Origin: an uncultured Planctomycetia bacterium
Lineage (GTDB): Bacteria; Omnitrophota; Gorgyraeia; Duberdicusellales; 4484-171
NCBI GenBank assembly: GCA_964629655.1
Contig: CAZVQU010000002.1
Span: 298,840 to 362,839 of the forward strand
Length of the DNA: 64,000 nt
Direction of reading: 5' to 3'
In this document: piece after piece, positions 1,585 through 19,148 of the stretch
Layout of the letters: every line of letters starts with the position of its first letter
Numbering within the stretch: position 1 is the stretch's first letter
Program-made: the position numbers and the translations under genes
Notes under the pieces: model-generated
Seen by the model: the letters and a program-made list of their open reading frames with translations, nothing else
What the model was told of the DNA's origin: nothing
Databases searched by the model: none

Positions 1585-2868
<1,284 letters not shown>

Positions 2869-2893
2869 TTACTTTGACTCCTTAGACTTAGGC

Positions 2894-4117
2894 TTACACA
2901 GCAAAGATCTTCTTTGCAATATCGGGGTGCTGAGCTAGGAATTTTAACTCATCCTCAACTAATGGCTTTTGGTTATGAACATTAGCATAGCGAGCTAGCT
3001 CTAAAATTTTGCGGGCCTCTTTGTCGTCTTTGAATTTTATTGCCAAACGATCATAAACATTGCGAAAACCTTTTATCCCGGAATACTCGCCTATAGTAAT
3101 CTTTCTGCCAGTATCAACAACTTCGGGTTCACCGCGACCCAAGGCTTCATAGTTATATAACTCATAGTTTCTTCTATCCTTTAGGGCGCCGTCAGCATGG
3201 ATTCCTGACTCATGAGCAAAAGCATTTGCACCGACACCAGGGTGATTTATAGGTATAGGTATACCGAAAGCATAAGAAGCATATCTACCTATTCTCCAGG
3301 CTTTCTTCAAGTTTACCTTGGAATCAAGTTTATATTTCTGCATACCGCTGCCATACTTAATTGCCAAGATAACACTAACTAAATCAGCGTTCCCGGCACG
3401 TTCACCCACTCCATTCACACAGGTATTGATATAAGCATCGACCCCATTATCCACTGCTGCCCTCGCTCCGGCAATAGAATTAGCGACCACAAGACCTAAA
3501 TCATTATGACAGTGAATTTCTGCCGGTAATTTTACCTTTCTTAAAATAGTATCCAGCCGCTCGTAGATAGAAAAGGGAGTGTCAAAGCCTAAGGTATCGC
3601 AATATCTAAATCTATCCGCTCCGGCTTCCTTTGCCGCCTTGACAAATTCAATCAAATATTCGATACGGGAACGTGAAGCATCTTCAGCATTAACCCCTAT
3701 TGCCTTTGCGCCTAACTTCCTGGCTAGTTTTACCGCCTCGGTCATATTCTTTATAACTCCTTTGTGGTCGAGACGGCCTTGGAATTTATGCTCAATCATC
3801 TGATCAGAGGTTGAAATTGAAAGGTTCAAATACTTTATCCCGGGAATATTCTTAAAAGCACTCTCAACATCCCCTTTTATTGCCCGTATCCAACCGGAAA
3901 GCCGTAAGTCCTTTATCGTTCCTTTGCGGACTAATTCTAAATTGGCCTTGAGGTAGTTACTCTCATGGCCAGTCATCGGAAACCCATACTCGCTCTGAAA
4001 TATTCCCATCTGATCAAGATAGAGGTTAATCATTGTCTTCTGTAATTTTGACAAGCATATCCGGGATGTTTGCACACCATCGCGGTTAGTAACATCAACT
4101 ATATAAATCTTAGCCAT
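2894..4117 (-). CDS. HMGL-like 2-isopropylmalate / homocitrate / citramalate synthase family protein (short form, no LeuA-type regulatory domain)
   Basis: 407 aa. It has the VDVTNRDGVQ N-terminus, a HCHNDLGLVVANSIAGARAA metal-binding motif and a DxH...GxGERAGNA pattern of the DRE-TIM aldolase HMGL family. I cannot assign specificity from sequence alone. Confidence 0.7.
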   Translation of the reverse strand: MAKIYIVDVTNRDGVQTSRICLSKLQKTMINLYLDQMGIFQSEYGFPMTGHESNYLKANLELVRKGTIKDLRLSGWIRAIKGDVESAFKNIPGIKYLNLSISTSDQMIEHKFQGRLDHKGVIKNMTEAVKLARKLGAKAIGVNAEDASRSRIEYLIEFVKAAKEAGADRFRYCDTLGFDTPFSIYERLDTILRKVKLPAEIHCHNDLGLVVANSIAGARAAVDNGVDAYINTCVNGVGERAGNADLVSVILAIKYGSGMQKYKLDSKVNLKKAWRIGRYASYAFGIPIPINHPGVGANAFAHESGIHADGALKDRRNYELYNYEALGRGEPEVVDTGRKITIGEYSGIKGFRNVYDRLAIKFKDDKEARKILELARYANVHNQKPLVEDELKFLAQHPDIAKKIFAV

Positions 4118-5043
4118 TATCTTCCTCCTTTGAAAAAACTCCTTAATTCTTCTTTATCAATATTAACTACCGTAAATATACGATTATTCTTCACTAAAAT
4201 AGCATTTCCACTTCCGACCATTAGTTCCTCTGCCAGCTGCTTATTCCTGCTAGTTAGTTTATCCATCTCCGGAGATGTCATCAAGTCTCTTACTTTTTTA
4301 TAGCTCAAACCTTCCTTCTCGGCTGTATCTATCCAAGAACTGTTTTCTATGTCCTTTATGCGCCGGTAAAGATAATTATTGGATTCCTTTGGGTAAAGCT
4401 CCCTTATGGCTAAAGCCACCCGCACTTCTTCTTTAGGATAACCGATCTTTTTGTTCTGAGAAACAACAAAATGAAGATCAAAGTCGATTTCATCTTCTCT
4501 TGAGAAACTTATTAAAGCATCTAAGGTCTCGCTGGCGCCTTTTTCGTAAAAATCCAAAAATAAATCAAGTTTACCTTTAATCTCTTTTCTCTCAAGAAAC
4601 CGGTATATACCAGATACTTCTTTTCTTAACAGAATTTTTTTTGCTTTTTCTTCTTCAAAAAGAACGCTAAGTTTTTGAAAGTTTTTTTCTTCCTTAATCA
4701 ATGGGCTAATAAGAAAACATGGCAAGGTCCGGATCTTATGCCGGGCAATGAGTTTCTTTGCCTGCCTCTTCTTGTAATCAATAGTCTCAAACTTAATTCC
4801 CGGAAATTTACTCTTCAGAAATCCTTGCGGCATTTGGGTAGAACAAAAAGAACAATTCTTGTCTGTAATAATAAGTGCTTCTATCTCTTTGGCTTCCCCG
4901 GGAGCGTGATCAGCTTTACATCCTTTACAAGGAGAAACCGGCTCATCCGCGTAAGTAAAAGATAAGGAGAAAAGAAAGGCGAAAATAACTAAAGATAGCC
5001 CGGAAATCCCCCTCTTAGCTAAACTCTTAAAATACACTACCAC
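4117..5043 (-). CDS. hypothetical secreted protein with CxxC motifs (possible thioredoxin-like fold)
   Basis: 308 aa. Hydrophobic N-terminal signal (LSLVIFAFLFSLSFTYA). Motifs CKGCKADH and CSFCSTQ. No confident family match by eye. Confidence 0.4.
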   Translation of the reverse strand: MVVYFKSLAKRGISGLSLVIFAFLFSLSFTYADEPVSPCKGCKADHAPGEAKEIEALIITDKNCSFCSTQMPQGFLKSKFPGIKFETIDYKKRQAKKLIARHKIRTLPCFLISPLIKEEKNFQKLSVLFEEEKAKKILLRKEVSGIYRFLERKEIKGKLDLFLDFYEKGASETLDALISFSREDEIDFDLHFVVSQNKKIGYPKEEVRVALAIRELYPKESNNYLYRRIKDIENSSWIDTAEKEGLSYKKVRDLMTSPEMDKLTSRNKQLAEELMVGSGNAILVKNNRIFTVVNIDKEELRSFFKGGR

Positions 5044-5048
5044 ATCTC

Positions 5049-6629
5049 CTATAGCTTTACTACTTTCAAGGAAACTATATTTGGATTAGATTTAATCTGA
5101 TTTACTACCCTTTCATCTACAGGATTATCTAAGTTGAGAATGGTCAGAGCTTCTTTTTTGCGACTACGCTTACCCAAGCTCATACCGGCTATATTGATAT
5201 TGTTAGACCCTAAAGTTGTACCTAGAAAACCGATAACTCCTGGCTTGTCCTGATTACTTATGACTAGCATCCGCTCAGAAGGTGCAATTTCAATGTAAAC
5301 ATCATCCATTTTAACAAAGCGAGCTTCTTTGTTAGAGAAAAGCGTTCCCTCTAATAGACGCTCCTCCTTATCAGAAGTAACCTTTACTCTTATGCTATTA
5401 GTATACTCCTCTTCCTCACTTACCTTTACCTGCTCCACCTTAATACTTCTGGCCTTGGCAACCTCTAAAGCATTTATGTAATTAACATCTTCTTCTAACT
5501 GCTGAGAGAAAAATCCCCGGGTAAAAGCCGCACCAAGAACGTCTACCTTGTAAGTTGATATTTCACCTAGATAGGATATTTTGATCTCCTTTACCCCACC
5601 CCGAATAAGCTGAGAGATAAATTTACCCATTTTCTCAGCCAAATTAAAGTAGGGCTCAATAATCTTATAGGTCTCGGGGTCAAGCTGAGCATAATTGACA
5701 GCATTTTTAATAGCCTTGCCCAAAAGAGCATCTTTTATGCAATGGGCGACTTCTATGGCGACATTCACCTGAGCTTCTTCAGTAGAAGCTCCCAGATGGG
5801 GGGTAGTAATAAGATTTTCTAAATCTAGAAGCTTAGACTCAAGAGGTGGCTCTTTTGAGTAAACATCTAAAGCTGCTCCGGCTATTCTTTTATCTCTTAG
5901 AGCCTTATATAAAGCCTCTTCATCCACTATCCCACCACGAGCACAATTAATCACAAAAGTACTTGGTTTCATCTGAGAAAATTCTTTGTCAGAAATCAAA
6001 CCCTTAGTCTCTTCGGTAAGGGGAGTGTGGACAGTAATAAAATCTGCTTTCTTCCATATTTCTTTTAGGCTTGCTAGTTTTACTCCAGTCTTCCCGGCCA
6101 CGTCTTCGGAAATAAAAGGGTCGCATACTAAAACTTCCATGCCAAAAGCGATTGCCCGCTTAACCACTTCTTTACCGATGCGCCCTAAGCCAACAACACC
6201 TAATACCTTGGAATAGAGCTCAATCCCCTTAAACTTAGACCGCTCCCACTTCTTCCCCTTAAGCGATATGTGGGCAAAAGGAATATTTCTAGCAACAGCC
6301 AGCATAAGGGCAAAAGTCTGCTCACAGGTAGAGATAGTGTTGCCTCCGGGAGCATTCATAACAATTATTCCTTTTTTGGTCGCGGCTTCTATATCAACAT
6401 TGTCCAAACCAACTCCGGCTCGGCCAATAGCTTTTAAACTATCTCCCTTTTCAATAACATCACTGGTAAGTTTTGTGCCGCTCCTTATTACAATGCCCTG
6501 ATAATCACCAATGATCTCTTTGAGCTCATCGGGACTTAACTTATACTTACAATCTACCTTAAAGCCGGCATCCTCTAATATCTTTACGCCTTCTGGTGAT
6601 AATTTATCAGATACAATAATCTTATCCAT
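5049..6629 (-). CDS. serA: D-3-phosphoglycerate dehydrogenase (long form with C-terminal ACT domain)
   Basis: 526 aa. NAD-binding GxGxIG (GLGRIGKEV), 2-hydroxyacid dehydrogenase catalytic motifs, and a C-terminal ACT-like region. Adjacent to a class-V aminotransferase. Confidence 0.9.
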   Translation of the reverse strand: MDKIIVSDKLSPEGVKILEDAGFKVDCKYKLSPDELKEIIGDYQGIVIRSGTKLTSDVIEKGDSLKAIGRAGVGLDNVDIEAATKKGIIVMNAPGGNTISTCEQTFALMLAVARNIPFAHISLKGKKWERSKFKGIELYSKVLGVVGLGRIGKEVVKRAIAFGMEVLVCDPFISEDVAGKTGVKLASLKEIWKKADFITVHTPLTEETKGLISDKEFSQMKPSTFVINCARGGIVDEEALYKALRDKRIAGAALDVYSKEPPLESKLLDLENLITTPHLGASTEEAQVNVAIEVAHCIKDALLGKAIKNAVNYAQLDPETYKIIEPYFNLAEKMGKFISQLIRGGVKEIKISYLGEISTYKVDVLGAAFTRGFFSQQLEEDVNYINALEVAKARSIKVEQVKVSEEEEYTNSIRVKVTSDKEERLLEGTLFSNKEARFVKMDDVYIEIAPSERMLVISNQDKPGVIGFLGTTLGSNNINIAGMSLGKRSRKKEALTILNLDNPVDERVVNQIKSNPNIVSLKVVKL

Positions 6630-9389: not shown

Positions 9390-10112
9390 TCACATCTTGA
9401 AATCTTTCCCTAAATATATCTCCTTGGCTTCATTGTTATTAATTAACTCATCCGATGTTCCTGAAACCAAAATTTTTCCTTCAGAAATCAAATAAGCTCT
9501 ATCAGTTATCGAAAGGGTCTCTCGCACATTATGGTCAGTTACTAAAATACCCATCCCCTTATTACTCAAATCAGAAATTATCTCTTTGGCTTCGCCAACT
9601 ACTATAGGATCAATTCCCGAAAAAGGTTCATCCAAAAGAAGAAAAGAAGGGTTAGTCACTAAAGCTCGGGTAATCTCTAAGCGTCGGGTCTCCCCACCAC
9701 TTAAGGTGTAAGCCTTGCTCTTTCGCAAATGCGATATCTTCAACTCTTCTAGCAATCCATCAAGACGTCTTAGGCGTTCCACACGCTGCAAAGGTAAAGT
9801 CTCTAAAATTGCCATAATGTTCTCCTCTACGCTAAGTTTTCTAAAAACCGAGGGCTCCTGAGAAAGATAGCCAATACCGAACTTGGCACGTACGTGAATA
9901 GGCGTATAGGTAATATTACGATTATCAAACGATATTTGGCCATCATCGGGAGAAATAATTCCCACCACCATATAGAAAGTAGTGGTCTTGCCTGCTCCGT
10001 TAGGCCCAAGCAAACCTACAACCTCACCCCTCTTCACTGACAAAGACACACCCTTTACCACTGTCTTATTGCCATAGGATTTGGTTAAATTATTAACTTC
10101 TAAAAGCCGCAT
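9390..10112 (-). CDS. lptB: LPS export ABC transporter ATP-binding protein
   Basis: 240 aa. Walker A GPNGAGKTT, LSGGE signature (YTLSGGETRRLEI) and Walker B LLLDEP. Sits next to kds/lpt genes as in the kdsD-kdsC-lptC-lptA-lptB arrangement. Confidence 0.85.
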   Translation of the reverse strand: MRLLEVNNLTKSYGNKTVVKGVSLSVKRGEVVGLLGPNGAGKTTTFYMVVGIISPDDGQISFDNRNITYTPIHVRAKFGIGYLSQEPSVFRKLSVEENIMAILETLPLQRVERLRRLDGLLEELKISHLRKSKAYTLSGGETRRLEITRALVTNPSFLLLDEPFSGIDPIVVGEAKEIISDLSNKGMGILVTDHNVRETLSITDRAYLISEGKILVSGTSDELINNNEAKEIYLGKDFKM

Positions 10113-10924
10113 TACTTAAAAAGATCTAAATCTTCCTCACTATCAGGATAATAAACTATTCTTGGTCGGCCTTCAAGAACTATTCTTTGCTCTTTGTTTA
10201 AATAAGTTGCCTTTTGAGAAAAAGTAACGTTACTGCCGCGTACTATTCTAACATTACCTTCAGAAACAATTTTTATTATTTCTTTATTCTCGGTATCGAA
10301 AAATAAAGTGGCCTTATCTGAATATAGCTTACCTTGAGGATGGGTAACCACCACATTCTCATTAAAGATTGCTTTTCCCTCGTTGTACTCAATCTCTAAA
10401 GGACCGCTGCAAACTGCTGTGGTAGCTTCCTTACTCTCTTTATCGGGAAGTGTTACTTTCACATCCTTCTTAAAAGCAGCGGTTTTGAGTTGAGTATCAG
10501 CTGAAAATCCGGATGCCTCTATTTCCATTGAATCCCTGGTAGTCTTTACCCAATCATCGGTCTCGACCTGATTCGACTCTCTCTTCCAATTCAAAGAATC
10601 AGTCTCTAAGGTTGCTCCCTCTTCATTCTCTATATGGACGCTATCTTTAAGATATACATTCATATTCTCTTTATTCAATCTTGCTTCATCAGAAGTAACT
10701 AGAATAGTGTCATCCTTTGCGTAGTAATTTGCTTCCATATCGTCGATATCTACATAATTATCATGCATAATAGCGGACTCCCCCTTTACCTCCCAATCTC
10801 GGGTGCCATCATCTTTAAAGTTAGAAAGATAAAAATCCTTAATTCTCTCTTGCGGGTAAGCCCGAATATTTATAGATACAGACGACAAAAGAATGGTAAT
10901 TAAAGTTAGGCTTCTTAAAAACAT
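10112..10924 (-). CDS. LptA/LptC-family (OstA-like) periplasmic LPS transport protein, candidate
   Basis: 270 aa. N-terminal signal/anchor. Position between lptB and kdsC is where lptC/lptA sit in other genomes. A beta-rich sequence. The family call rests on context more than on motifs. Confidence 0.45.
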   Translation of the reverse strand: MFLRSLTLITILLSSVSINIRAYPQERIKDFYLSNFKDDGTRDWEVKGESAIMHDNYVDIDDMEANYYAKDDTILVTSDEARLNKENMNVYLKDSVHIENEEGATLETDSLNWKRESNQVETDDWVKTTRDSMEIEASGFSADTQLKTAAFKKDVKVTLPDKESKEATTAVCSGPLEIEYNEGKAIFNENVVVTHPQGKLYSDKATLFFDTENKEIIKIVSEGNVRIVRGSNVTFSQKATYLNKEQRIVLEGRPRIVYYPDSEEDLDLFK

Positions 10925-10959
10925 ACTAATATATCAAATTACACCTTAAAGTCAACTGC

Positions 10960-11493
10960 TTAACGAGGATTTCTAACAATTCCATAGATATTCTTCTCTA
11001 AATTTTGAGCTTTAAAAATTAGGTCTGCTACCTCTCTCACTGCTCCTTCTCCACCTTTTCTTTTAGTAATATACTTAGCTGCTCGCTTAACTGCTAAAGG
11101 TGCATCAGGTACTGCCACCGATACTCCGACCTTCTCAATTACGCCTAGATCTATCCAATCATCGCCAATAAAACAGATTTCACCTTCTTTAACCTTATAT
11201 TTTTTCTTAATCTTTCCCAGAACGCTCTCCTTGGGTAGAATTCCGCCGATTACCTCAACCACCCGCATATCCCGGGCTCTTCTTTTAAGCACCGGAGAAT
11301 TATGAGCTGAGAGCAAAATCGTCTTAATTCCCATCTTGCTAAGAAGATATACTCCCAATCCATCTTTAACGTTGAAAATCTTAAAATCCCTGCCCTGACT
11401 GTCGTAAATTATTTCCCCGCGGGTTAAGACGCCGTCAACATCTAAAATGAGCAGCTTTACCTTCTTAAATAGGTCTTTAATCTTTTTGTTCAT
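10960..11493 (-). CDS. kdsC: 3-deoxy-D-manno-octulosonate 8-phosphate phosphatase (HAD family)
   Basis: 177 aa. HAD motif I LILDVDGVLT. KdsC-like length and context (kdsD/kdsA/kdsB adjacent). Confidence 0.8.
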   Translation of the reverse strand: MNKKIKDLFKKVKLLILDVDGVLTRGEIIYDSQGRDFKIFNVKDGLGVYLLSKMGIKTILLSAHNSPVLKRRARDMRVVEVIGGILPKESVLGKIKKKYKVKEGEICFIGDDWIDLGVIEKVGVSVAVPDAPLAVKRAAKYITKRKGGEGAVREVADLIFKAQNLEKNIYGIVRNPR

Positions 11494-11528
11494 AATTCAG
11501 CTAACGAACTTTACAAGTTCGAGTTTCA

Positions 11529-12509
11529 TTATATTATTCCAGCAGCAATCAAATCCTGGATATCTAGCATCCCGGCAGGACGATAGTTCTTATCCACTAC
11601 TGGAACTTCATCAATCTTCTTTCTCTCCAAAATCTTTAAAGCCTCTGAAGCTAAGTCATCATCACAAACTACTATTGGACTCTTAGTCATGACCATCTTG
11701 ACTTTTTCCTTCAAAAGATGCGGATGTTTTTCTAAATTTCGGCGTAGATCTCCATCGGTAAATATCCCGGTCAATTTCTTACTCTTATTAACAACAGTTG
11801 CTGCTCCGGCATGAGCAGTTGTTATTTTTAAAATAACCTCTTTAACCAAGGCATTCTCGCTAACAATAGGATTAAATTTCCCCTTACGCATAATATCCTT
11901 AACCTTAAGCAGTAACCTCCGCCCTAAAGAACCCCGGGGATGGAAAAAAGCAAAATCCTTCTCTTTAAAACCCTTTATCTTCTGCAAAACTACTGATATC
12001 GCATCACATATTGCTAACATTGCCGTAGTAGAAGTAGTCGGAGCTAAACCTAGGGCACAGGCCTCCTTATCTACCTTAACGTTAACTACGCTGTCAGAAT
12101 AACAAGCAAGATTAGACTTGATGTTTCCGGTAATGGCAATTATTTTTGCTCCAATCTTCTTTATGAATGGAATCAAATTCTTTATCTCGTCAGTCTCCCC
12201 GCTATAAGAAAGAACTACCACTACATCGTCTTCACGTACACTACCTAAATCCCCATGGACTGCCTCAGCAGCATGAAGCCAAAACGATGAAGAACCGGTA
12301 GAAGAGAGAGTAGCTGAAAACTTCTGGCCGATGATTCCGGCCTTGCCCATGCCAGTTACCACAACTCTACCCTTACAACGAGAAATCGTATCAATTACCT
12401 TTAAAAAGCTCTTATTTAGATTACGGCCTAGATCATCAATGCCTTTTTTCTCTGTCTTAAGCACCTCTTTTGCCCATCTCACGATCTCTTTTTTGTTAAT
12501 CTTTTTCAT
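11529..12509 (-). CDS. kdsD: arabinose-5-phosphate isomerase (SIS + tandem CBS domains)
   Basis: 326 aa. SIS-domain motifs (VVVTGMGKAG, SYSGET) followed by CBS-pair-like C-terminus. Confidence 0.85.
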   Translation of the reverse strand: MKKINKKEIVRWAKEVLKTEKKGIDDLGRNLNKSFLKVIDTISRCKGRVVVTGMGKAGIIGQKFSATLSSTGSSSFWLHAAEAVHGDLGSVREDDVVVVLSYSGETDEIKNLIPFIKKIGAKIIAITGNIKSNLACYSDSVVNVKVDKEACALGLAPTTSTTAMLAICDAISVVLQKIKGFKEKDFAFFHPRGSLGRRLLLKVKDIMRKGKFNPIVSENALVKEVILKITTAHAGAATVVNKSKKLTGIFTDGDLRRNLEKHPHLLKEKVKMVMTKSPIVVCDDDLASEALKILERKKIDEVPVVDKNYRPAGMLDIQDLIAAGII

Positions 12510-13293
12510 TTACTGCCTCTCTTATCTTTAGAATACTCTTAACCAAACCTTTAAGCTTAGCCAAGGGTAAAGAAGTATAAGCATCTGATAAAGCCTGAGA
12601 AGGCTTCGGATGCACCTCCATAAACAAGCCATCTACACCGCAAGCTACTGCCGCTCTCGCTAAAGCTGGAGCAAACTCTCTATCTCCTCCTGAGACCCCT
12701 CCCTTTGCTGAAGGACTTTGCAGGGAATGAGTAACATCATAAATTACTGGGTATCCACATTTTTTCATAATTAAAAAAGAACGAAAGTCAACAACTAGAC
12801 TATTATAACCAAAGCAACTCCCTCTCTCGGTAATAATAATCTTTTTATTCCCTGTTGCCTCGACCTTATCAACTACATATTTAATATCGGCAGGAGAAAC
12901 AAATTGACCTTTCTTAATATTTATCATCTTCTTAGTCTTTGCCGCCTCCAAAATTAAATCGGTTTGACGACAGAGAAAAGCCGGTATTTGAATTATATCA
13001 AGAACATCCCTAACATCTTTTATCTGACTAACACAATGTATATCACTTAAAATCGGAATTCCTAGCTTGGACTTGACCTCTCCCAATATCTTAATTCCCT
13101 TAGCTAGACCTACTCCTCGAGGAGATTTAATTGAAGTGCGATTAGCCTTATCAAAACTAGCCTTAAAGATAAACCGTACAGGAAGAGTTGAAAATAAATC
13201 CTTCAAATAAGAAGCAATATCCATTGTTTGACTCTTATTCTCAATCACACAAGGACCAGCGATAAAAATCAACTCTTCTCCTGATTTAGGCAT
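12496..13293 (-). CDS. kdsA: 2-dehydro-3-deoxyphosphooctonate aldolase (Kdo-8-phosphate synthase)
   Basis: 265 aa. KdsA/DAHP-synthase-like TIM barrel motifs (IAGPCVIE, KASFDKANRTS). Overlaps kdsD by 14 nt. Confidence 0.9.
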   Translation of the reverse strand: MPKSGEELIFIAGPCVIENKSQTMDIASYLKDLFSTLPVRFIFKASFDKANRTSIKSPRGVGLAKGIKILGEVKSKLGIPILSDIHCVSQIKDVRDVLDIIQIPAFLCRQTDLILEAAKTKKMINIKKGQFVSPADIKYVVDKVEATGNKKIIITERGSCFGYNSLVVDFRSFLIMKKCGYPVIYDVTHSLQSPSAKGGVSGGDREFAPALARAAVACGVDGLFMEVHPKPSQALSDAYTSLPLAKLKGLVKSILKIREAVNEKD

Positions 13294-13310
13294 ATTAAAT
13301 CCTCACTCTT

Positions 13311-14063
13311 CTAAGTATTGTCTCTCTGAACTAAAAGCCTCTCAGCCTTATAGAAATCCTCTTCGGTATCAACACCACAAGAATCAAATTGGGTTTCAAA
13401 AACTTTTATCTTGTAACCAGCCTCTAAGGCCCTTAGTTGTTCTAATTTTTCTGATCCTTCTAATGAGGATTCGGGAAGATTCTTAAAAGTATAAAGAAAA
13501 TCCTTGGTATAGGCATAAATTCCTAAGTGCTTATAGTATAGGCGTGGGCTGCTTTCGTCTCGATGAAAGGGAATTGGAAAACGAGAAAAATAAAGCGCAT
13601 CATCTTCCCGGGTAGTTACAACCTTGACAACATTAGGATTATTTATCTCACTCTCTTCATCGATCCTCTTCTTAGCTGTAGCCATAACTAACTCCTCATT
13701 CGAGAGCATTTCCTGAGCCAACCTATCAATTACTGAATGATGGATAAGCGGCTCATCAGCCTGGATATTTATAACAACTTTAACATTAATGTCTCTTACG
13801 GCTTCAGCTATTCTATCTGTACCTGAAGAATGCTCAAGAGATGTTAAGATAACCTCAGCCCCGAACTTTTCGGCTTCCTTCTTTATTTCAAGGTGGTCAC
13901 AAGCAATAATTAGCCTGTCTAGACTATGAGTGGCAGATGCATTCTCCCAAGTCCATTGCAACAAGCTCTTGCCACGAATCGTACGCAGAAGCTTATGGCT
14001 GAGCCTAGTTGATTCATACCGTGCCGGTATTACACCAATTACATTAAACTTAGTTTCCATCAA
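13311..14063 (-). CDS. kdsB: 3-deoxy-manno-octulosonate cytidylyltransferase (CMP-Kdo synthetase)
   Basis: 250 aa. N-terminal VIGVIPARYESTRL nucleotidyltransferase motif and IQADEP motif typical of KdsB. Confidence 0.9.
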   Translation of the reverse strand: MMETKFNVIGVIPARYESTRLSHKLLRTIRGKSLLQWTWENASATHSLDRLIIACDHLEIKKEAEKFGAEVILTSLEHSSGTDRIAEAVRDINVKVVINIQADEPLIHHSVIDRLAQEMLSNEELVMATAKKRIDEESEINNPNVVKVVTTREDDALYFSRFPIPFHRDESSPRLYYKHLGIYAYTKDFLYTFKNLPESSLEGSEKLEQLRALEAGYKIKVFETQFDSCGVDTEEDFYKAERLLVQRDNT

Positions 14064-15024
14064 TTGCCTTATTGAGCTCTTTTCTATTTACAGTTGCTGC
14101 TCCTAACTTACCGACTACAATTCCAGCAGCAAAATTCGCAATCATTGCCGCTTCTCTATAAGAGGCTCCGGCAGTCAGAGCTAAAGTAAAAGCAGAAATT
14201 ACTGTATCTCCGGCTCCGCTGACATCAAAAACCTCCAAGGCTGCTGTGGGAATATGATAATGGTCATTGCCGGAAAACAACATCATTCCATCTTCACCTA
14301 AGGTGATTAAAAGCGCCTTAGGGTTCAACTTCTTCATGATTATCTTGCCTAAGAAAAATAGCTGTTTCTTATTTCGTATCTTGATTCCGGCTGTAGCCTG
14401 GGCTTCCTTCAAATTAGGGGTAAGAGCAGTTACATTTTCATAGTAATCAAAGTGTTCCTCTTTGGGGTCAACAGTAATTACCTTCTTCTTCTTACGGCAC
14501 AAGTTTACTAACTCCTCAAGCAATAGAGGATTTATTACCCCTTTACCGTAATCTTCGACAATTACAGCATCAAAATCATCGAGGTTCTTCTTAATTTTAT
14601 TAAGAACCAGCTTATTTGTATTTGCCGAAAGAAATTCTAATGATTCCCAATCAACTCTTACCACTTGTTGATGGTGAGCAATTATTCTAGTCTTTAAGGT
14701 AGTCGGTCTCTTATTATCTCTAACAATCAAATCGGTAGAGATACCGCACTTACCAATAAGAGAAAATAAAGTTTTACCGAAATGATCCCTGCCAGTAACT
14801 CCGCAAAGACTCACCTTTGCCCCCATAGCGCTAAGGTTAAGGCCTACATTAGCAGCCCCTCCGGGAACGAAATTCTCCCGATTAGCCCAGACTACTGGAA
14901 CTGGAGCCTCTGGAGAAACCCGGTCAACGCTTCCAAAAATATGATGATCAAGAATCAAGTCTCCAACTACAAGGATTTTCTTATTCTTAAAACGAGAAGC
15001 GATATTTTTTAGCTTCTTCTTCAC
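14050..15024 (-). CDS. rfaE: D-beta-D-heptose 7-phosphate kinase (RfaE/HldE domain I, PfkB family carbohydrate kinase)
   Basis: 324 aa. PfkB ribokinase-like motifs (GGAANV..., DVSGAGDT). Starts on GTG with a GGGAGA RBS. LPS-core context. Confidence 0.8.
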   Translation of the reverse strand: MKKKLKNIASRFKNKKILVVGDLILDHHIFGSVDRVSPEAPVPVVWANRENFVPGGAANVGLNLSAMGAKVSLCGVTGRDHFGKTLFSLIGKCGISTDLIVRDNKRPTTLKTRIIAHHQQVVRVDWESLEFLSANTNKLVLNKIKKNLDDFDAVIVEDYGKGVINPLLLEELVNLCRKKKKVITVDPKEEHFDYYENVTALTPNLKEAQATAGIKIRNKKQLFFLGKIIMKKLNPKALLITLGEDGMMLFSGNDHYHIPTAALEVFDVSGAGDTVISAFTLALTAGASYREAAMIANFAAGIVVGKLGAATVNRKELNKAIDGN

Positions 15025-15074
15025 TGCTTTCTCCCTTTAAAATCAAGCCCTAAAGCTGCCAATATAACCAAACA

Positions 15075-15083
15075 ATTATACCA
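15075..15083 (-). promoter_or_regulatory. candidate extended -10 promoter element (TGGTATAAT on minus strand) upstream of rfaE
   Basis: Minus-strand TGGTATAAT (TGn + TATAAT) lies ~50 nt upstream of the rfaE GTG start. No good -35. Sits in an AT-rich region 15025-15224. Confidence 0.35.
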
Positions 15084-15224
15084 TTCTAATAGAAAAAATC
15101 TACAATAAAACTATATATTACTATATATATAATATGTACTGGTTTTAAAGGCTAAAATCGGTTGGACCAAGCTTAACCGCTAAAAAATAGCAGCTACCGG
15201 AAATCTGATTGTCGACGGAAAATA

Positions 15225-15389
15225 GAGGAATCCTTTAAGTGTAAATTCAATACTCCTTATTTATCAACATACAATACCAAAAGCTTTTTATGCGCCATAA
15301 TTTTAGCTGTACATTTTTTAGATTTAGTGACACATGAATGAGAATGTTTTGGAATTGGGCGGACACAGTTTAAGCACACACTTTGCCAT
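15225..15389 (-). repeat. repeat unit copy 1: small ORF + spacer + conserved 46-nt block
   Basis: Block 15225-15270 (plus: gaggaatcctttaagtgtaaattcaatactccttatttatcaacat) is 43/46 identical to 17355-17400. The 21-codon ORF at 15324-15389 is paralogous to the one at 17455-17526. Confidence 0.8.
15324..15389 (-). CDS. small ORF, 21 aa: MAKCVLKLCPPNSKTFSFMCH (conserved-motif peptide, paralog 1)
   Basis: Hand-translated from the reverse complement. ATG at 15389..15387, TAA at 15326..15324. It begins 33 nt downstream of the methyltransferase stop on the same strand. It shares K-L-C-P-x-N-x-K-T and a C-terminal H with the 17455..17526 ORF, with synonymous differences in the conserved codons (TGT/TGC, CCG/CCA, AAT/AAC). 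The RBS is weak: GAGAGG abuts the ATG. Confidence 0.45.
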   Translation of the reverse strand: MAKCVLKLCPPNSKTFSFMCH

Positions 15390-15422
15390 CCTCTCTAAAA
15401 GGAAGTATTTTGTAATGTAAGT

Positions 15423-16022
15423 TTAGTGGTAAGCTATTGCTATTTTCTGATAATCAGATTTATGTATGCCGACCTCAAAACCCTTGATTGTGAGGTAAGC
15501 TACTGCGACACCTAGCTTATCTTTCGGAAACACATGCTCTCTTCCTTCACTTTTGTGAATTCTTTCGATAAGCTTAAAACCTTCTTCAGTGAAATCGCTT
15601 AAGACAATCTTACCATTTTCTGAAAGAACTCTTGTCATTTCGTCTACAATTTTTTCCAAGCAAGACAAATGATGTAACGTGTTAATAGAAAAAATTGTGT
15701 CGAAAGCACCATCTTTAAAGCTTAAGTTCTCGGCATTCTCTATTTTAAAATCGACAGAATTTTCAATATCCAGGTACTTTATGTTAGACATTGCATAATT
15801 CTGCTCCTCTTCTGAAATATCAATGCTTGTTAGGCGACAACCTTTTTTAGCAAGCTGAATAGTAAAATATCCCTTACCAGTCCCTACCTCCAGAATCCTT
15901 CCGTTAATCGGTTTTGCTTTGTTAAAAATAAACTCTCTCTCTTCCTCTATGTCATAGCCAAAGCTCTTGTACAGCTTGATTCTCTCTAGGTAGTACTCAT
16001 AGCTATCAGCCACCTTATTCAT
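15423..16022 (-). CDS. class I SAM-dependent methyltransferase (Methyltransf_11/UbiE-like)
   Basis: 199 aa. Motif I ILEVGTGKGYFT, with downstream acidic and DGAFD motifs of Rossmann-fold MTases. Confidence 0.8.
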   Translation of the reverse strand: MNKVADSYEYYLERIKLYKSFGYDIEEEREFIFNKAKPINGRILEVGTGKGYFTIQLAKKGCRLTSIDISEEEQNYAMSNIKYLDIENSVDFKIENAENLSFKDGAFDTIFSINTLHHLSCLEKIVDEMTRVLSENGKIVLSDFTEEGFKLIERIHKSEGREHVFPKDKLGVAVAYLTIKGFEVGIHKSDYQKIAIAYH

Positions 16023-16054
16023 AAATTACCATTAATAGCATTAGTTGTAGTCGT

Positions 16055-16378
16055 TTAGAATGTAACAACCTTGTCGCTTTCCTTTATAATATCATACATA
16101 TCATTCATCGTGGAAATAGGGCACATTTCAGACACTTCTTGCTCCCTGGACTTAATACATGTTCCACAAGCATAGATTTTACCACCCGATTGCATAAGCT
16201 CTTCTACCTGTTTAATCGTATCGAACTTCTTGGTGCCAATCTTTTGGTATTCTACCCCTTTGCCCATAAAGAAAACCTTAACTTCGTCGCCATATTTTAA
16301 ACAAAATCTGGCATAGCGTAAAGCATTCCAGCAAGTTTCTGGATCATCGGATGAAATAATGACCCCTATCTTTCCCAT
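16055..16378 (-). CDS. DsrE/DsrF-like family small protein
   Basis: 107 aa. Begins MGKIGVIISSDDPE and has the CGTC motif of a DsrE-like fold. Strong RBS AAGGAGG 6 nt upstream. The call is from memory of the family pattern. Confidence 0.55.
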   Translation of the reverse strand: MGKIGVIISSDDPETCWNALRYARFCLKYGDEVKVFFMGKGVEYQKIGTKKFDTIKQVEELMQSGGKIYACGTCIKSREQEVSEMCPISTMNDMYDIIKESDKVVTF

Positions 16379-16390
16379 AGAAACCTCCTT

Positions 16391-16756
16391 TTAATGGCAA
16401 CCATGATCTACGCAAGCGTTGTCCACGGTGATTTCTTCTAATTTGCCTTGTTCATAACTCTCAATTATCTCATGGCCAACCTTAGCGCTCACCCTATAGG
16501 CCCTGATTCCGCTTTCGTTGAGTTTTTGAACAGCTCGTGCCCCCATTCCTCTGCAAACAACAGCATTAATAGTTTGGTTCTCTAATACTTTCAAAGGGTG
16601 ACACATCCCGTGCATATGATTCTTATCGCTATTATCTATAATCTCAAAATTCTTAGCTTCAGTATCATAAATAAGAAAATGTGCTGCGCTGCCAAAATGA
16701 TCAAATACTTTTGATTTTAGACCTTCATTGGTTTCTATTGGCATGCATATTTTCAT
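16391..16756 (-). CDS. NifX/NifB-like dinitrogenase iron-molybdenum cofactor family protein (PF02579-like)
   Basis: Likely start at the MKICMPIET methionine: ATG 16756..16754 overlaps the upstream gene's stop (TGATG), implying translational coupling. The track's ORF 16391..16774 has 6 extra codons. Family-typical small protein motifs (HFG.A..F.I.D, CRGMGARA). Confidence 0.7.
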   Translation of the reverse strand: MKICMPIETNEGLKSKVFDHFGSAAHFLIYDTEAKNFEIIDNSDKNHMHGMCHPLKVLENQTINAVVCRGMGARAVQKLNESGIRAYRVSAKVGHEIIESYEQGKLEEITVDNACVDHGCH

Positions 16757-17229
16757 CAGACTATCCTCCCGCATATACCTCTGCCACGCCCCACACCTCT
16801 ACCTGCTCTTACCCAACCTTTACTTTCTGAGGCTCTATGGATATTTGTACTCTTACATTTTAGGCACCCATTAGGCCTACCCGAACCATATGGCAAACTC
16901 CACTCATTCTTGCAATCATAACAAACAAAATGTCTCTCCACCATTTTCACTACACCTCCTTCTATTTTTAATGCTTTGCCATTAACTAATGCATCTGCTA
17001 TTTTCTTATGTGCAGAAGAAATTATATTCCCAAAGGTCTGTCTTGAAACATTCATTTTTCTAGCACTATCCTCTTGATACTTATCTTCTAAATCAGCAAG
17101 GCGTACTGCCTCAAGTTCATCCATCGTAAGATTCACTTCCCTCAATGCGTCAGTCGGAATGCCTTTCGGCTTAAAATAATTAGAGTCAGGTCTACAACAC
17201 ACTTTTCTCGGCCTACACGGTCTTGGCAT
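16756..17229 (-). CDS. DUF134 (UPF0251) family predicted DNA-binding protein with extra C-terminal zinc ribbon and Gly/Arg-rich tail
   Basis: 157 aa. N-terminus MPRPCRPRKVCCRPDSNYFKPKGIP is the DUF134 hallmark. An HTH-like segment follows (QEDSARKMNVSRQTFGNIISSAHKK). The C-terminus adds CYDC...CLKC (a C-x2-C...C-x2-C ribbon) and ends GRGVGRGRGICGRIV. Confidence 0.75.
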   Translation of the reverse strand: MPRPCRPRKVCCRPDSNYFKPKGIPTDALREVNLTMDELEAVRLADLEDKYQEDSARKMNVSRQTFGNIISSAHKKIADALVNGKALKIEGGVVKMVERHFVCYDCKNEWSLPYGSGRPNGCLKCKSTNIHRASESKGWVRAGRGVGRGRGICGRIV

Positions 17230-17244
17230 ATGGCCCCCTTTGTA

Positions 17245-17264
17245 TTATTAGCATATGCTAATAA
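17245..17264. promoter_or_regulatory. perfect 20-bp palindrome TTATTAGCATATGCTAATAA (candidate operator) overlapping the -10/TSS of the DUF134-operon promoter
   Basis: Verified base by base: 17245-17264 equals its own reverse complement. It overlaps the predicted -10 (17261-17266) and lies ~20 nt upstream of the DUF134 start codon. Confidence 0.6.
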
Positions 17265-17289
17265 TAACATACTTCTATCTATATGTCAA
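17261..17289 (-). promoter_or_regulatory. sigma70-like promoter for the DUF134-NifX-DsrE-MTase operon (-35 TTGACA, 17-nt spacer, -10 TATTAT)
   Basis: On the minus strand the -35 TTGACA is at 17289..17284, followed by a 17-nt spacer and the -10 TATTAT at 17266..17261. The RBS AAAGGGGG precedes the ATG at 17229. Confidence 0.55.
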
Positions 17290-17354
17290 GATTTCAAAAA
17301 GATAAAACCCCCTGCTATAAAGTTCTATAATAGGGAAAATGGATGCGGAGGGGA

Positions 17355-17526
17355 GAGGATTCCTTTAGATGTAAATTCAATACTCCTTATTTATCAACAT
17401 ATTATCAAGAAAGCCCTTTATTAGCAAGAATTTTTACTGTGCGATTGTTTACATTTAGTGACGTTTGTATGCAGATGTTTTGATGTTGGATGGGCACAGT
17501 TTGGGCACAAACTGATATGCGCCCAT
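17355..17526 (-). repeat. repeat unit copy 2: small ORF + spacer + conserved 46-nt block
   Basis: Block 17355-17400 is 43/46 identical to 15225-15270. The spacer is ~60% identical. The ORF is paralogous to copy 1. The flanking GGAGGGGAGAGGATTC (17347-17362) recurs at 19082-19097. Confidence 0.8.
17455..17526 (-). CDS. small ORF, 23 aa: MGAYQFVPKLCPSNIKTSAYKRH (conserved-motif peptide, paralog 2)
   Basis: Hand-translated. ATG at 17526..17524, TAA at 17457..17455. RBS AAGGAG sits 11 nt upstream. It begins 36 nt downstream of the 92-aa membrane protein gene stop. An in-frame upstream TAA bounds the ORF. Confidence 0.45.
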   Translation of the reverse strand: MGAYQFVPKLCPSNIKTSAYKRH

Positions 17527-17562
17527 TATTTAAACTGCTCCTTTACGCTAGGGTGGGTGAAA
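17527..17562 (-). repeat. duplicated 5' leader segment (gtaaaggagcagtttaaata + GCTAGG-TG-G), copy A, upstream of small ORF 2
   Basis: 20/20 identical to 17849-17868, with partial similarity continuing ~15 nt. Carries the AAGGAG RBS. Confidence 0.7.
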
Positions 17563-17841
17563 CTACCCGACAATAAGAAGTATAAAACTAAGAATGAAGA
17601 TAGTTACTCCACCGTACTTCAAAAATTTACCTATTTTCACAGGTTTAAAGACTCGAATTGTTTTATCTGGTGATTCTTTATCAAGCTTTATGCCTAAATT
17701 AACAAAATAAATTCCAGCCATTAGCATAAAAATATTATTTATTTTCTCTGCAATCTTACCGCCCAATCTAAAATACCCTGCAATTACACCAATGATAGCA
17801 AGAATAATCATCAATCCAACCAACCTTTTCTTCTCCATCAT
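17563..17841 (-). CDS. small integral membrane protein (3 predicted TM helices), unknown function
   Basis: 92 aa. Hydrophobic segments LVGLMIILAIIGVIAGYF, IFMLMAGIYFVNLGI and GVTIFILSFILLIVG. Strong RBS AGGAGGAATG. Confidence 0.5.
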   Translation of the reverse strand: MMEKKRLVGLMIILAIIGVIAGYFRLGGKIAEKINNIFMLMAGIYFVNLGIKLDKESPDKTIRVFKPVKIGKFLKYGGVTIFILSFILLIVG

Positions 17842-17848
17842 TCCTCCT

Positions 17849-17895
17849 TATTTAAACTGCTCCTTTACTTTGAATCCGCTAGGTTGAGACTATTC
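17849..17895 (-). repeat. duplicated 5' leader segment, copy B, upstream of the 92-aa membrane protein gene
   Basis: Identical 20-mer tatttaaactgctcctttac (plus strand) plus similar flanking sequence, as in 17527-17562. Confidence 0.7.
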
Positions 17896-18345
17896 TACAG
17901 TCCTAAATAATATCTCCCTTATAATAAATATCTTCCCCTTGTCTAGCGGTTTACCTGGTTTAATCATTTCGACAGAAAATATACCTTGGCATATTTTATC
18001 TTTAATTTCAAACGATTTTAACCATACCTGACGAACCCTATTACTAAAATTAATCTTAGCTTCGTGTTCTATTATGAGACCCTGCTTAGACGAAGCAACT
18101 TTATACCTAATTCTACGAGGTAAATCTTTATTTAACAACTCTCCATCAATTTCAGCTTTAATAATATACTTACCTCTGGGAAGAGAAAATTCTATAGAAT
18201 CTTTATCTCCTGCAGCATTCGGTAGAATTAGCTCTGTTTTATGAAGTGATTGGTTATAATATGCTCTCCAGACACTTCTTGTGCCAAACAAAACTATAAT
18301 AATAGCTAATACAATAAAGATTCCTATATTTAGTTTCCGCATCAT
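17890..18345 (-). CDS. signal-anchored/secreted hypothetical protein
   Basis: The track ORF is 173 aa. The likely true start is MMRKLNIGIFIVLAIIIVLFG (ATGATG at 18345..18340) preceded by a G-rich RBS. The upstream 22 codons (MGHIKR...) fall in the duplicated 5' region. No family recognised. Confidence 0.5.
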   Translation of the reverse strand: MMRKLNIGIFIVLAIIIVLFGTRSVWRAYYNQSLHKTELILPNAAGDKDSIEFSLPRGKYIIKAEIDGELLNKDLPRRIRYKVASSKQGLIIEHEAKINFSNRVRQVWLKSFEIKDKICQGIFSVEMIKPGKPLDKGKIFIIREILFRTVE

Positions 18346-18436
18346 CCCCCCCCTATCTCTTCTTTCCCTTCCTATATTGTTTCCAACAATCATTCTTTTG
18401 ATATGACCCATATCATTTAAATTACTTCTTGCCCCT

Positions 18437-18907
18437 TTACTTCAGTTCTGCCAAACCTCTCTCACATCCTCTTTTCCAAGCCTCTGTAAATCTCAACGCA
18501 ATCGATTTTTCAAAATTCTCTCTTTCAAAACCATCGAAGGTCTCTATCGTAGCCTTGATTTCTTTGATTTGCTCGTTTAATATTAGGATTGCTTTTTTAA
18601 AATTTTCTTTTGCCTTATCTTTCATGCCCACTTCTTTATAAGCCCAACCTAGCCTAGCATAACTCATATAATAATTCTTATCTAACCCTACAGCTTTTTC
18701 GTAAGACTCAATGGCCTTATGCAAGTCTTTCGCTTCCATGTATGCCGTTCCCAAAAGGTCCCAAGACATAGGATTATCTGGCGCCCTTTCTATCCCTTTT
18801 TTAGCCCAATCCATAAGTGACCCTTCCTCTGCGTATAGGCTACAAGATAGCAGCACACTTAATCCTACGAAACATATTATTAAGAATAATATTTTCTTCT
18901 TCATCAT
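18437..18907 (-). CDS. TPR-repeat lipoprotein
   Basis: 156 aa. Signal peptide + lipobox-like LLSCSLYA. TPR-like repeats (AYMEAKDLHKAIESYEKAVGLD, ARLGWAYKEVGMKDKAKENFKKAI). Its 5' UTR/start (ATGATGAAG with AAGGAGGG RBS) is DNA-similar to that of 17890..18345. Confidence 0.55.
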   Translation of the reverse strand: MMKKKILFLIICFVGLSVLLSCSLYAEEGSLMDWAKKGIERAPDNPMSWDLLGTAYMEAKDLHKAIESYEKAVGLDKNYYMSYARLGWAYKEVGMKDKAKENFKKAILILNEQIKEIKATIETFDGFERENFEKSIALRFTEAWKRGCERGLAELK

Positions 18908-18974
18908 CCCTCCTTATCTTTTCTTCCCCTTCCTGTATTGTTTTAAACACTAAAAAACAGTATACCACCCGAAA

Positions 18975-19100
18975 GGCTACTTTGATAGGCACAAAATGGG
19001 CACAAGAAAGAATTATTTTTTTGATGAAGTTGTAACTGACTGTACAAGAAGATGTTGTGAAGGCAAAAAACAAAAACGGAGGGGAGAGGATTCTCCGCGA
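18975..19100 (-). repeat. degenerate third copy of the small-ORF repeat family (ORF remnant without start codon) plus GGAGGGGAGAGGATTC motif
   Basis: Plus-strand gataggcacaaaatgggcacaag (18984-19006) matches copy 2's gatgggcacagtttgggcacaa. On the minus strand it reads ...FFLVPILCLSK* with an in-frame TAA upstream and no ATG. Plus 19082-19097 is identical to 17347-17362. Confidence 0.55.
19063..19098 (-). terminator. candidate intrinsic terminator downstream of hemW
   Basis: Minus-strand RNA cggag-aatcctctccc-ctccg is followed by tttttgtttttt, 50-85 nt after the hemW stop. The stem is only 5 bp (GC-rich). Confidence 0.4.
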
Positions 19101-19148
19101 CTTGAACACGTGGACTATTAAAATAAGTAAGGGTAAACCTCAATCTTT

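Follow-up and report, generated by a model that had tools for sequence, protein, structure and literature searches.

A 64-kb stretch of contig CAZVQU010000002.1 from an uncultured bacterium, which the names of its closest homologues place in Candidatus Omnitrophota, is hereafter called the window; it contains a compact operon headed by a gene of the DUF134 family (DUF, domain of unknown function), the promoter of which is overlapped by a palindrome that is probably the operator of the DUF134 protein itself. Four close-packed genes, together with this promoter and palindrome, occupy positions 15423-17289 of the minus strand (table 1). Their families were assigned with Pfam profiles and the corresponding cut-offs, using NCBIfam equivalogs as a second check. 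The first gene product matches PF02001 (DUF134, also UPF0251) with an E value of 8.9e-23 and 81.1 bits against a cut-off of 27, residues 2-95 aligning with profile positions 2-96 of 98. The second is a NifX-like protein matching PF02579, Nitro_FeMo-Co (E 7e-21, 74.8 bits, cut-off 26.3), the third a DsrE-like protein matching PF02635 (E 3.7e-13, 50.1 bits, cut-off 22.7) and the fourth a class I S-adenosylmethionine (SAM)-dependent methyltransferase that scores above threshold with Methyltransf_11/25/31 (E about 1e-20). A preliminary description, made by reading the DNA alone, had named these same families for four linked genes on the minus strand; all four assignments are significant, and those to DUF134, PF02579 and DsrE withstand the hidden Markov model (HMM) searches on which it had made them depend. 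The interval 16055-17300 that it gave for the whole cluster leaves the methyltransferase gene (15423-16022) outside.

The genes are tightly joined. DUF134 and the NifX-like gene share a TGATG stop/start overlap at 16756, as previously reported, in an arrangement of translational coupling, and the following gaps measure 12 nucleotides (nt) between the NifX-like and DsrE-like genes and 32 nt between the latter and the methyltransferase gene. Strong ribosome-binding sites had been reported for the remaining genes: they precede DUF134 (AAGGGGG) and the DsrE-like gene (AAGGAGG), but no Shine-Dalgarno sequence can be read before the methyltransferase ATG at 16022, the ribosome-binding site of which is weak.

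The promoter, TTGACA-17-TATTAT (17289..17261), agrees with the sigma-70 consensus at 11 of 12 positions, carries a TG extension and is the top promoter match in the region, in accordance with its earlier description as near-consensus. The 20-bp palindrome previously placed over the -10 box and transcription start, TTATTAGCATATGCTAATAA at 17245-17264, is indeed perfect and covers the -10 box, but its true length is 24 bp, for it extends to the perfect 24-mer TATTATTAGCATATGCTAATAATA. It has a 10-0-10 layout with a GCATATGC core and is the sole match in the 64 kb, even when 3 mismatches are allowed; no match was found in 100 shuffles. The predicted operator thereby overlaps the core promoter of the regulator's own operon.

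Table 1. Features of the DUF134 operon and its immediate borders in the window
Feature	Position	Strand	Basis or remark
-35 hexamer TTGACA	17284..17289	-	promoter scan
-10 hexamer TATTAT with TG extension; outer left arm of the palindrome	17261..17266	-	promoter scan
Predicted DUF134 operator, perfect 24-bp palindrome TATTATTAGCATATGCTAATAATA with a conserved 20-bp core (17245-17264)	17243..17266	.	inverted repeat, conservation, covariation
Shine-Dalgarno sequence AAGGGGG of the DUF134 gene	17234..17240	-	read from the sequence
DUF134 / UPF0251 gene, 157 amino acids (aa)	16756..17229	-	PF02001
NifX/NifB-C-terminal-like ('Di-Nase', orange-protein-like) gene, 121 aa	16391..16756	-	PF02579
DsrE/DsrF-like gene, 107 aa	16055..16378	-	PF02635
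Class I SAM-dependent methyltransferase gene, 199 aa	15423..16022	-	Methyltransf_11/25/31
Terminator-like hairpin with T-run directly upstream of the promoter (tentative)	17296..17335	-	minimum free energy fold
Upstream copy of the ~170-nt direct repeat	17354..17530	-	the 'micro-ORF' (open reading frame) of the preliminary description; outside the regulatory unit
Downstream copy of the ~170-nt direct repeat, directly after the methyltransferase stop codon	15224..15400	-	

Conservation and specificity of the predicted operator

The DNA upstream of DUF134 was compared in 80 genome loci whose DUF134 proteins are 55-80% identical to that of the window, drawn from about 15 phyla (Omnitrophota, Planctomycetota, Thermodesulfobacteriota, Spirochaetota, Elusimicrobia, Margulisiibacteriota, Aminicenantes, Calditrichaceae, KSB1, Nitrospira, Clostridia and others). 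A palindrome centred on GCATATGC lies no more than 130 nt upstream of the DUF134 start in 68 of these loci, at distances of 24-129 nt (24-51 nt in 66 of them), and its core sits inside the wider consensus TTATTRGCATATGCYAATAA. The remaining 12 loci comprise eight where the site, further upstream, heads a longer operon and DsrE-like, TrmO-like, Mrp/NBP35 or ABC ATPase genes come before DUF134, three with one-base variants of the core and one cut by the contig end. Beyond promoter and operator the intergenic DNA is unalignable, nucleotide similarity to the window ending at about 17335. The presence of the palindrome at orthologous loci, on which the preliminary description had made its reading depend, is thus borne out by the 68 loci with the site upstream of DUF134 and the eight with the site at the operon start.

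A symmetrised position weight matrix (PWM), of which the window palindrome reaches the maximum of 35.5 bits while the runner-up in the 64 kb scores -0.3, returned only 13 further sites over 614 kb of flanking sequence. Most of these are the operon-start sites already described; one is the variant operator of a DUF134 paralogue and another, in the deltaproteobacterial locus L040 (related loci and contigs are cited by such numbers), fronts an Mrp/NBP35 gene. The L040 site consists of a second promoter with a perfect operator copy, ATTATTGGCATATGCTAATAAT (2505-2562), and the Mrp/NBP35-type ATPase gene behind it (2676-3521), 2.4 kb upstream of the DUF134 gene, is a predicted second member of the regulon.

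The converse comparison used no protein information: a metagenome collection was scanned with the 20-mer alone, which gave at least 120 contigs. Among the matches listed, 100 of 120 contigs have the start of a DUF134 homologue no further than 120 nt from the 20-mer, and the commonest distance from operator to DUF134 start is 16 nt, the same as in the window. In about ten of the other twenty listed contigs, a contig end is no more than about 100 nt away from the site; in the few internal exceptions among them, the site fronts a DsrE-like gene followed by DUF134, or else Mrp/NBP35 ATPase, NifX-like, thioredoxin or TrpB-like genes. The operator motif is near-exclusive, being almost confined to the starts of DUF134 operons. 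On the 5.5-kb contig L108, which has no DUF134 gene, the operator overlies the -10 region of a gene for a 453-aa TrpB-like pyridoxal phosphate enzyme (3749-5187).

The position of the operator relative to the promoter falls into two classes among 171 loci. In 116 of them the first base of the -35 box is 34-37 nt from the palindrome centre, which places the -10 box and the predicted start under the operator, while in 18 loci the centre is 18-19 nt from the -35 start, within the 17-nt spacer (TTGACAAATTATGAGCATATGCTTATAAT). At either position a bound protein would keep RNA polymerase out; as the promoters are also close to consensus, DUF134 is likely to act by repression.

Operator and protein also vary together. 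In 172 DUF134 genes with a recognisable site, we compared the residue following SRxTFx in the recognition helix with operator position -6. Where this residue is asparagine, as with N68 of the window protein, all 274 of 274 half-sites have T at -6; where it is arginine, the base is G (32), A (18) or T (2), hence G or A in 50 of 52. Two subfamilies of short paralogues share contigs with main-type DUF134 proteins but own separate operators: those with the helix SRPTFSR have TTATGAACATATGTTCATAA or a one-base variant of it (4/4; L005, L118, L131, L158) and those with HRSTV[AS]R have TTATGCACATATGTGCATAA (2/2; L098, L122). This relationship between residue 68 and base -6 is the pattern predicted for direct readout of the operator by the recognition helix. 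An operator that is conserved, specific to DUF134 and covarying with it supports the architecture of DUF134 autoregulation put forward in the preliminary description.

Two minor features of these sequences can be added. The SRPTFSR paralogues, of 101-102 aa, end in GGCCK (L005 231-3007; L118, L131, L158), and that of L005 precedes genes for a 318-aa membrane permease, a 75-aa CxxC thioredoxin-like protein and a CcdA-like membrane protein, names that were read from the sequences and not from an HMM search. In the window, the start-codon region of DUF134, CCATATGCCAAGA (Met-Pro-Arg, 17223-17232), resembles the operator half-site GCATATGCCAA and is 90% complementary to part of the palindrome, a likeness that may be incidental to the conserved MPR codons.

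The DUF134 protein, its NifX-like partner and the associated genes

The window DUF134 protein starts with an arm rich in Cys and Arg (MPRPCRPRKVCCRP..YFKP) and contains a helix-turn-helix (HTH) like that of sigma-70 region 4, the recognition helix of which, SRQTFGN, comprises residues 62-68. An alignment of 30 homologues displays the invariant arm MPRP..R.V.C.P...YFKP.GIP and a conserved HTH, with P14, Y18, F19, K20 and P21 as well as S62, R63, Q64 and T65 among the invariant residues. The C-terminal ribbon C103-x2-C106...C122-x2-C125 is equally invariant, together with W110, P119 and H131-R132; the Gly/Arg tail (GRGVGRGRG in the window) is conserved, and the Cys at its end is nearly invariant. 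Ribbon and tail had been noted before as extras of this protein, and both are present, but the zinc ribbon is a widespread subfamily trait found in 143 of the 220 DUF134 gene hits counted. At least one Cys precedes the YFKP motif in 181 of 187 DUF134 proteins, most of which have four or more after IEGG. The protein falls short of the NCBIfam equivalog PRK04217 (50.7 bits vs a cut-off of 115) and belongs to a different subfamily, one with a C-terminal zinc ribbon; PF27353 is precomputed on many homologues.

No significant sequence relative of DUF134 was found in the PDB. The AlphaFold model has a predicted local distance difference test score (pLDDT) of 64 overall and of 74-83 across most of the HTH region (residues 31-80). 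Foldseek E values for this model are weak (best 0.026) owing to the shortness of the domains, and local superpositions alone were used: the modelled HTH superposes on SigE and other sigma region-4 domains with a root-mean-square deviation of 0.6-1.0 Å over about 50 residues and on GerE with about 3.5 Å, while the modelled ribbon superposes on the N-terminal zinc domain of MCM.

A NifX-like gene follows DUF134 in 63 of the 80 genome loci, in agreement with the recurrent linkage claimed previously. The same claim had included DsrE; the NifX-like gene is the constant partner, but the DsrE-like gene is an occasional one. Moreover, five gut-type contigs (L099, L162, L164, L180, L182) encode DUF134::NifX fusions of 223-245 aa combining PF02001 and PF02579, with a Cys-rich linker (LCDGSPCCENCCKS), and these fusions sit behind the same 20-bp operator. 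By the Rosetta-stone principle, such fusions argue that DUF134 and the NifX-like protein form a functional complex. A frameshifted copy of the fusion occurs in L168.

The NifX-like protein of the window has as its top NCBIfam match the C-terminal 'Di-Nase' domain of MrpORP, below cut-off. Its score with the nifX equivalog TIGR02663 is so far under the cut-off (19.6 bits vs 112) that the protein is not NifX, and the nifB equivalog gives 19.5 vs 344. Its solved relatives in the PDB are TM1290, MTH1175, TM1816 and PH0822. NifX-like proteins retain the His/Cys motifs HxHGxCHP and, at the C-terminus, CxxHxCH.

DUF134 operons elsewhere contain Mrp/NBP35 carriers, MinD/CbiA ATPases with two Fer4 motifs, CGGC, DUF5320 and FmdB-type ribbon proteins, as well as radical SAM, metallo-beta-lactamase fold, TrmO-like and thioredoxin genes. 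The order in Peptoclostridium is DUF134-NifX-ATPase-ATPase-MrpORP, and MrpORP or MinD-like Fe-S ATPases accompany DUF134 in L211, L044, L071, L040 and L178; a Pfam search of the ORFs found neither in the window operon. Cultured carriers of DUF134 include Peptoclostridium acidaminophilum and Acetoanaerobium, and the gene is present in the complete genomes OY969425.1, CP070652.1, CP070689.1 and CP070697.1.

The other two genes of the window operon are accessory members. DsrE-like genes occur in 4 of the 80 genome loci and, among the matches listed, in 10 of 120 metagenome contigs; homologues 68-78% identical to the window protein are present in the DUF134 operons of L010, L016, L021, L100, L104, L114, L125, L136 and L158. 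The protein carries an A-C-G-T-C motif and has weak similarity to the C-terminal domain of YedF, with no sequence relatives in the PDB. The methyltransferase, portrayed in the preliminary description as a particular extension of this cluster, is instead a recurrent member, with homologues in the DUF134 operons of 7 of 70 genome loci and, among the matches listed, of 22 of 120 metagenome contigs. It displays the SAM-binding motif EVGTGKG, of GxGxG type, in a Rossmann domain, and neither this enzyme nor the DsrE-like protein reached a substrate-specific equivalog of NCBIfam. All four gene types occur together in L010, L100, L104, L114, L136 and L158, with the order of the window in L136.

The C-terminal part of the methyltransferase is His-rich (IHKSEGREH in the window, EEIHTQEGHHHE in L008). 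A reading of the enzyme as a defence protein was discarded, the PADLOC match to mad2 covering the generic SAM domain only. Two unrelated SAM-dependent types, the class I methyltransferase and the TrmO-like protein, are found repeatedly in DUF134 operons, a hint that the pathway involves methylation chemistry.

DUF134-NifX pairs are also borne by plasmids, 188 records of which are in PLSDB, mostly conjugative, from Klebsiella, Citrobacter, Enterobacter and E. coli. The pair of a Citrobacter IncF plasmid (L210 3380-4194) lies near psiB and that of an E. coli IncFIB/IncHI1A plasmid (L212 3890-4703) adjoins a Dps gene and insertion sequence (IS) elements; each has two GCATATGC sites upstream. The E. 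coli pair consists of WP_001137910.1 and WP_000626969.1, and its two sites lie at L212 3890-3940. In these Citrobacter and E. coli examples the DUF134 helix is SRQTLAN and pairs with T at -6, as predicted. Megablast of the Citrobacter pair against complete E. coli genomes gave no match, and PLSDB holds a different allele of the pair on E. coli plasmids. Because the operator core stands before DUF134-NifX pairs on E. coli, Klebsiella and Citrobacter plasmids, its function is testable in a standard laboratory host.

Interpretation and comparison with known systems

We interpret DUF134 as a dimeric HTH autorepressor that would act on the palindrome and keep the four-gene operon shut until a signal arrives, a reading to which we assign a probability of roughly 0.75. 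The two SRQTFGN recognition helices of a DUF134 dimer would read the half-sites TTATTAGCAT|ATGCTAATAA, in a palindrome that lies across both the -10 box of a strong sigma-70 promoter and its predicted transcription start. DUF134 bound there would then block RNA polymerase and switch the operon off, until the signal releases it. From the sequence comparisons we infer physical binding, repression rather than activation and the position of the transcription start. The NifX-like protein could be the sensory partner, with a possible contribution of the DUF134 cysteines in the arm, the ribbon and the C-terminus, although we would give this slightly less than an even chance; together they might report an Fe-S or Mo/Cu-S type cofactor, or the redox state. 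The regulon would then serve metal-sulfur trafficking of the orange-protein-like kind found in anaerobes, reduced here to the NifX-like, DsrE-like and methyltransferase genes.

Several considerations weigh against this autorepressor reading. The loci are related by descent, probably with horizontal transfer, and their counts overstate the number of independent events; similarly, the DUF134 proteins bearing Arg in the recognition helix form about three clades and thus represent few such events. Part of the conservation of the left arm could be due to the -10 box itself, and the scan of the host genome for further sites covers 64 kb only. The structural model is moderate (pLDDT 64) and monomeric, dimerisation being assumed. 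Ribbon-less DUF134 proteins of 97-98 aa use the same operator, and the zinc ribbon is therefore dispensable for the choice of site. A sensory role of the NifX-like protein has adjacency and fusion as its only grounds, and no DUF134 binding assay, transcription start map or expression data were found in the literature searched.

Might DUF134 instead bind the palindrome as an activator, or as a promoter-recognition subunit akin to sigma region 4? Its HTH resembles that region of sigma-70, and the 18 loci with the site in the -35/-10 spacer have it in the position from which activators of MerR type work. However, the spacer in this class is 17 nt, as opposed to 19-20 nt in MerR promoters; the promoters, being already near consensus (TTGACA-17-TATTAT/TATAAT), should not need activation, and in two thirds of the loci the -10 box and the predicted start lie under the site, where a bound protein would exclude polymerase. 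We consider this alternative very unlikely. Marginally less probable still is that the palindrome is the site of another regulator, of the Fur/PerR, Rrf2 or Rex type, for which the DUF134 operon is merely a target. AT-rich palindromes over -10 boxes are typical of Fur/PerR-type sites, and a few sites do front TrpB-like, thioredoxin or Mrp/NBP35 genes with no adjacent DUF134. Yet the motif is nearly limited to DUF134 operon starts and is constant across phyla that share no other obvious common regulator nearby, while the operator changes with the DUF134 helix even between paralogues on one contig (L005, L098, L122, L131). In addition, a 10-0-10 palindrome with a GCATATGC core is unlike the consensus of Fur, PerR or Rex, which counts against such a regulator.

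The metal-cofactor reading would be wrong if the DUF134/NifX-like pair were a selfish mobile module, of the addiction or toxin-antitoxin kind. The overlap of a small HTH gene with a second small gene behind a strong promoter and palindromic operator would fit such a module, as would the high identity of DUF134 across phyla, the location of the window operon in a 4-kb strain-specific insertion (see below) and the 188 plasmid records, including conjugative IncF/IncHI plasmids with the pair near psiB or IS elements. We nevertheless regard it as very improbable: the DUF134, NifX-like and DsrE-like proteins have no match in PADLOC, the NifX-like proteins keep their His/Cys motifs, the neighbours are Mrp/NBP35, MinD-Fer4, CGGC and radical SAM genes, and the homologous domain of MrpORP binds Fe-S clusters (PMC6345978). 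PADLOC and PHROGs searches gave no defence or phage reading. Finally, AT-rich genomes yield short palindromes and CATATG is self-complementary, so that the palindrome might have arisen by chance, or might act at the RNA level or as a structural element, for instance as a hairpin of the 5'-untranslated region. This possibility is effectively refuted by the conservation data, for the motif was matched in none of the 100 shuffles and is conserved in hundreds of loci; furthermore, sites of one class precede the -10 box and so cannot form part of the transcript, whereas in the other the predicted start falls inside the palindrome and would leave a single arm in the RNA.

The proposed autorepression by DUF134 can be compared with that of known regulators. 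The ArsR/SmtB, Rrf2/IscR and antitoxin-type repressors resemble it in that the regulator is a Cys-rich protein encoded first in its own operon and an inverted repeat, the half-sites of which are spaced by one turn of the helix, overlaps the -10 box and start; by this analogy, the richness of DUF134 in Cys suggests metal or cluster sensing. Unlike these classical autorepressors, DUF134 has an HTH of the sigma-70 region-4/GerE kind, an Arg/Cys-rich arm and, here, a zinc ribbon, and its likely sensor would be a separate, sometimes fused, NifX-like protein.

The closest known parallel is the orange protein (ORP) system of Desulfovibrio vulgaris and D. gigas, which shares with the window a stand-alone Di-Nase/NifX-like protein, here the product of the second gene; MrpORP, Mrp/NBP35 and MinD plus Fer4 ATPases occur in related DUF134 operons too, and anaerobes harbour both systems. 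MrpORP has an Fe-S cluster bound in its Di-Nase domain (PMC6345978), and orp expression in Desulfovibrio depends on sigma-54 and OrpR, a [4Fe-4S] redox sensor whose regulon consists of just the two orp operons (PMC8359166); a dedicated local regulator is therefore a further shared feature. The ORP system thus uses sigma-54, IHF and the PAS-containing enhancer-binding protein OrpR with its [4Fe-4S] cluster, whereas the window operon has a sigma-70-type promoter and DUF134; it also has the ATPases and MrpORP, in place of which the window operon carries the DsrE-like and SAM methyltransferase genes. By analogy, we infer that DUF134 and its NifX-like partner may play the regulatory role of OrpR outside Desulfovibrio. 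Tentatively, and with odds we would put at about one in three, the pair might even constitute a widespread, undescribed two-part sensor-regulator, with one part binding DNA and the other a cofactor, that reports cofactor or redox state, controls the orange-protein-like metal-sulfur trafficking genes of anaerobes through the near-universal TTATTRGCATATGCYAATAA, replacing sigma-54 and OrpR, and is also carried by enterobacterial conjugative plasmids.

Resemblances to other proteins of these families are more limited. The NifX/NafY/NifB C-terminal domain belongs to the same PF02579 and is of similar size, but the window protein lies far below the equivalog cut-offs and, unlike FeMo-cofactor carriers, groups with TM1290, MTH1175 and PH0822, structural-genomics proteins from non-diazotrophs. 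The DsrE-like protein shares the PF02635 fold family with DsrEFH/TusBCD and has the weak similarity to the YedF C-terminal domain already mentioned; in contrast to DsrEFH/TusBCD, the operon has a single 107-aa DsrE-like gene, with neither an E/F/H trio nor a TusA/DsrC partner.

The mechanism so outlined, autorepression on a palindrome over the own promoter, is conventional, while neither the DUF134 family nor its operator, its specificity contact or its partnership with NifX-like proteins seems to have been described before: full-text searches of the literature under DUF134, UPF0251, COG1342, PF02001 or the motif turned up no study of function or binding site. The window operon is one ordinary member of a large conserved module, and it is in the module that its value lies. 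PF02001, among the oldest of the 'domains of unknown function', gains a predicted DNA target, a predicted contact (residue 68 with base -6) and a constant partner, and is tied to the poorly understood NifX-like and orange-protein genes typical of anaerobes. The operator motif can be used for annotating DUF134 regulons in thousands of genomes and metagenome bins.

Direct repeats and surroundings of the operon

The hairpin with T-run upstream of the promoter has a 90% identical counterpart at L005 4897-4927 and was not called by the consensus terminator scan; tentatively, it might insulate the operon from the upstream gene.

The operon is bracketed by the two copies of the ~170-nt direct repeat, which are 77-80% identical, possess an almost identical 48-nt core (ATGTTGATAAATAAGGAGTATTGAATTTACA...) and each begin directly after a stop codon. 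The upstream copy had been taken for a conserved micro-ORF of the cluster. This candidate gene was rejected: differences between the copies are spread over the codon positions as 7/4/7, 4/7/7 and 7/7/4 in the three frames, devoid of a coding signature, and the frame favoured by the ribosome-binding sites is not the same in one copy as in the other. Folding of their RNA gave no significant structure (z-scores -0.07 and -0.58), Rfam searches at gathering thresholds over the whole window and at E-value thresholds over 15050-17650 returned nothing relevant to the locus, and no further copies were found elsewhere in the window or in roughly 200 related loci. The repeat is best regarded as non-coding DNA and not as a gene of the cluster. 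A circular or mobile cassette, considered on account of 2160-nt Logan contigs, was also set aside, since their length equals the repeat spacing of 2130 plus 30 and is the uninformative de Bruijn result of repeated k-mers.

An exact repeat of 21 nt (…GTAAAGGAGCAGTTTAAATAATG) is present at 17526-17546 and 17848-17868. One copy forms the ribosome-binding site and start of a 92-aa membrane ORF; the other follows the stop codon of that ORF and stands at the head of the upstream 170-nt copy.

In relatives with an HldE 84-91% identical to that of the window (L204-L209), hldE is immediately preceded by a hemW-like radical SAM gene. The window has about 4 kb extra (15160-19148), containing ORFs of 156, 173 and 92 aa, both repeats and the operon, with no integrase or transposase in this segment. 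Because these 4 kb are missing from the close relatives, the operon sits in a strain-specific insertion, which fits the wide and patchy distribution of the module.

The operon is followed immediately, on the minus strand, by a series of lipopolysaccharide genes of the 3-deoxy-D-manno-octulosonic acid (Kdo)-heptose type (9390-15024). Its HldE-kinase was confirmed with NCBIfam, and synteny with L205-L209 identifies CTP_transf_3 (KdsB-type), DAHP_synth_1 (KdsA-type), SIS/CBS, phosphatase, LptC-like and ABC ATPase genes. The sole Rfam match in the window is one tRNA, at 39808-39879.

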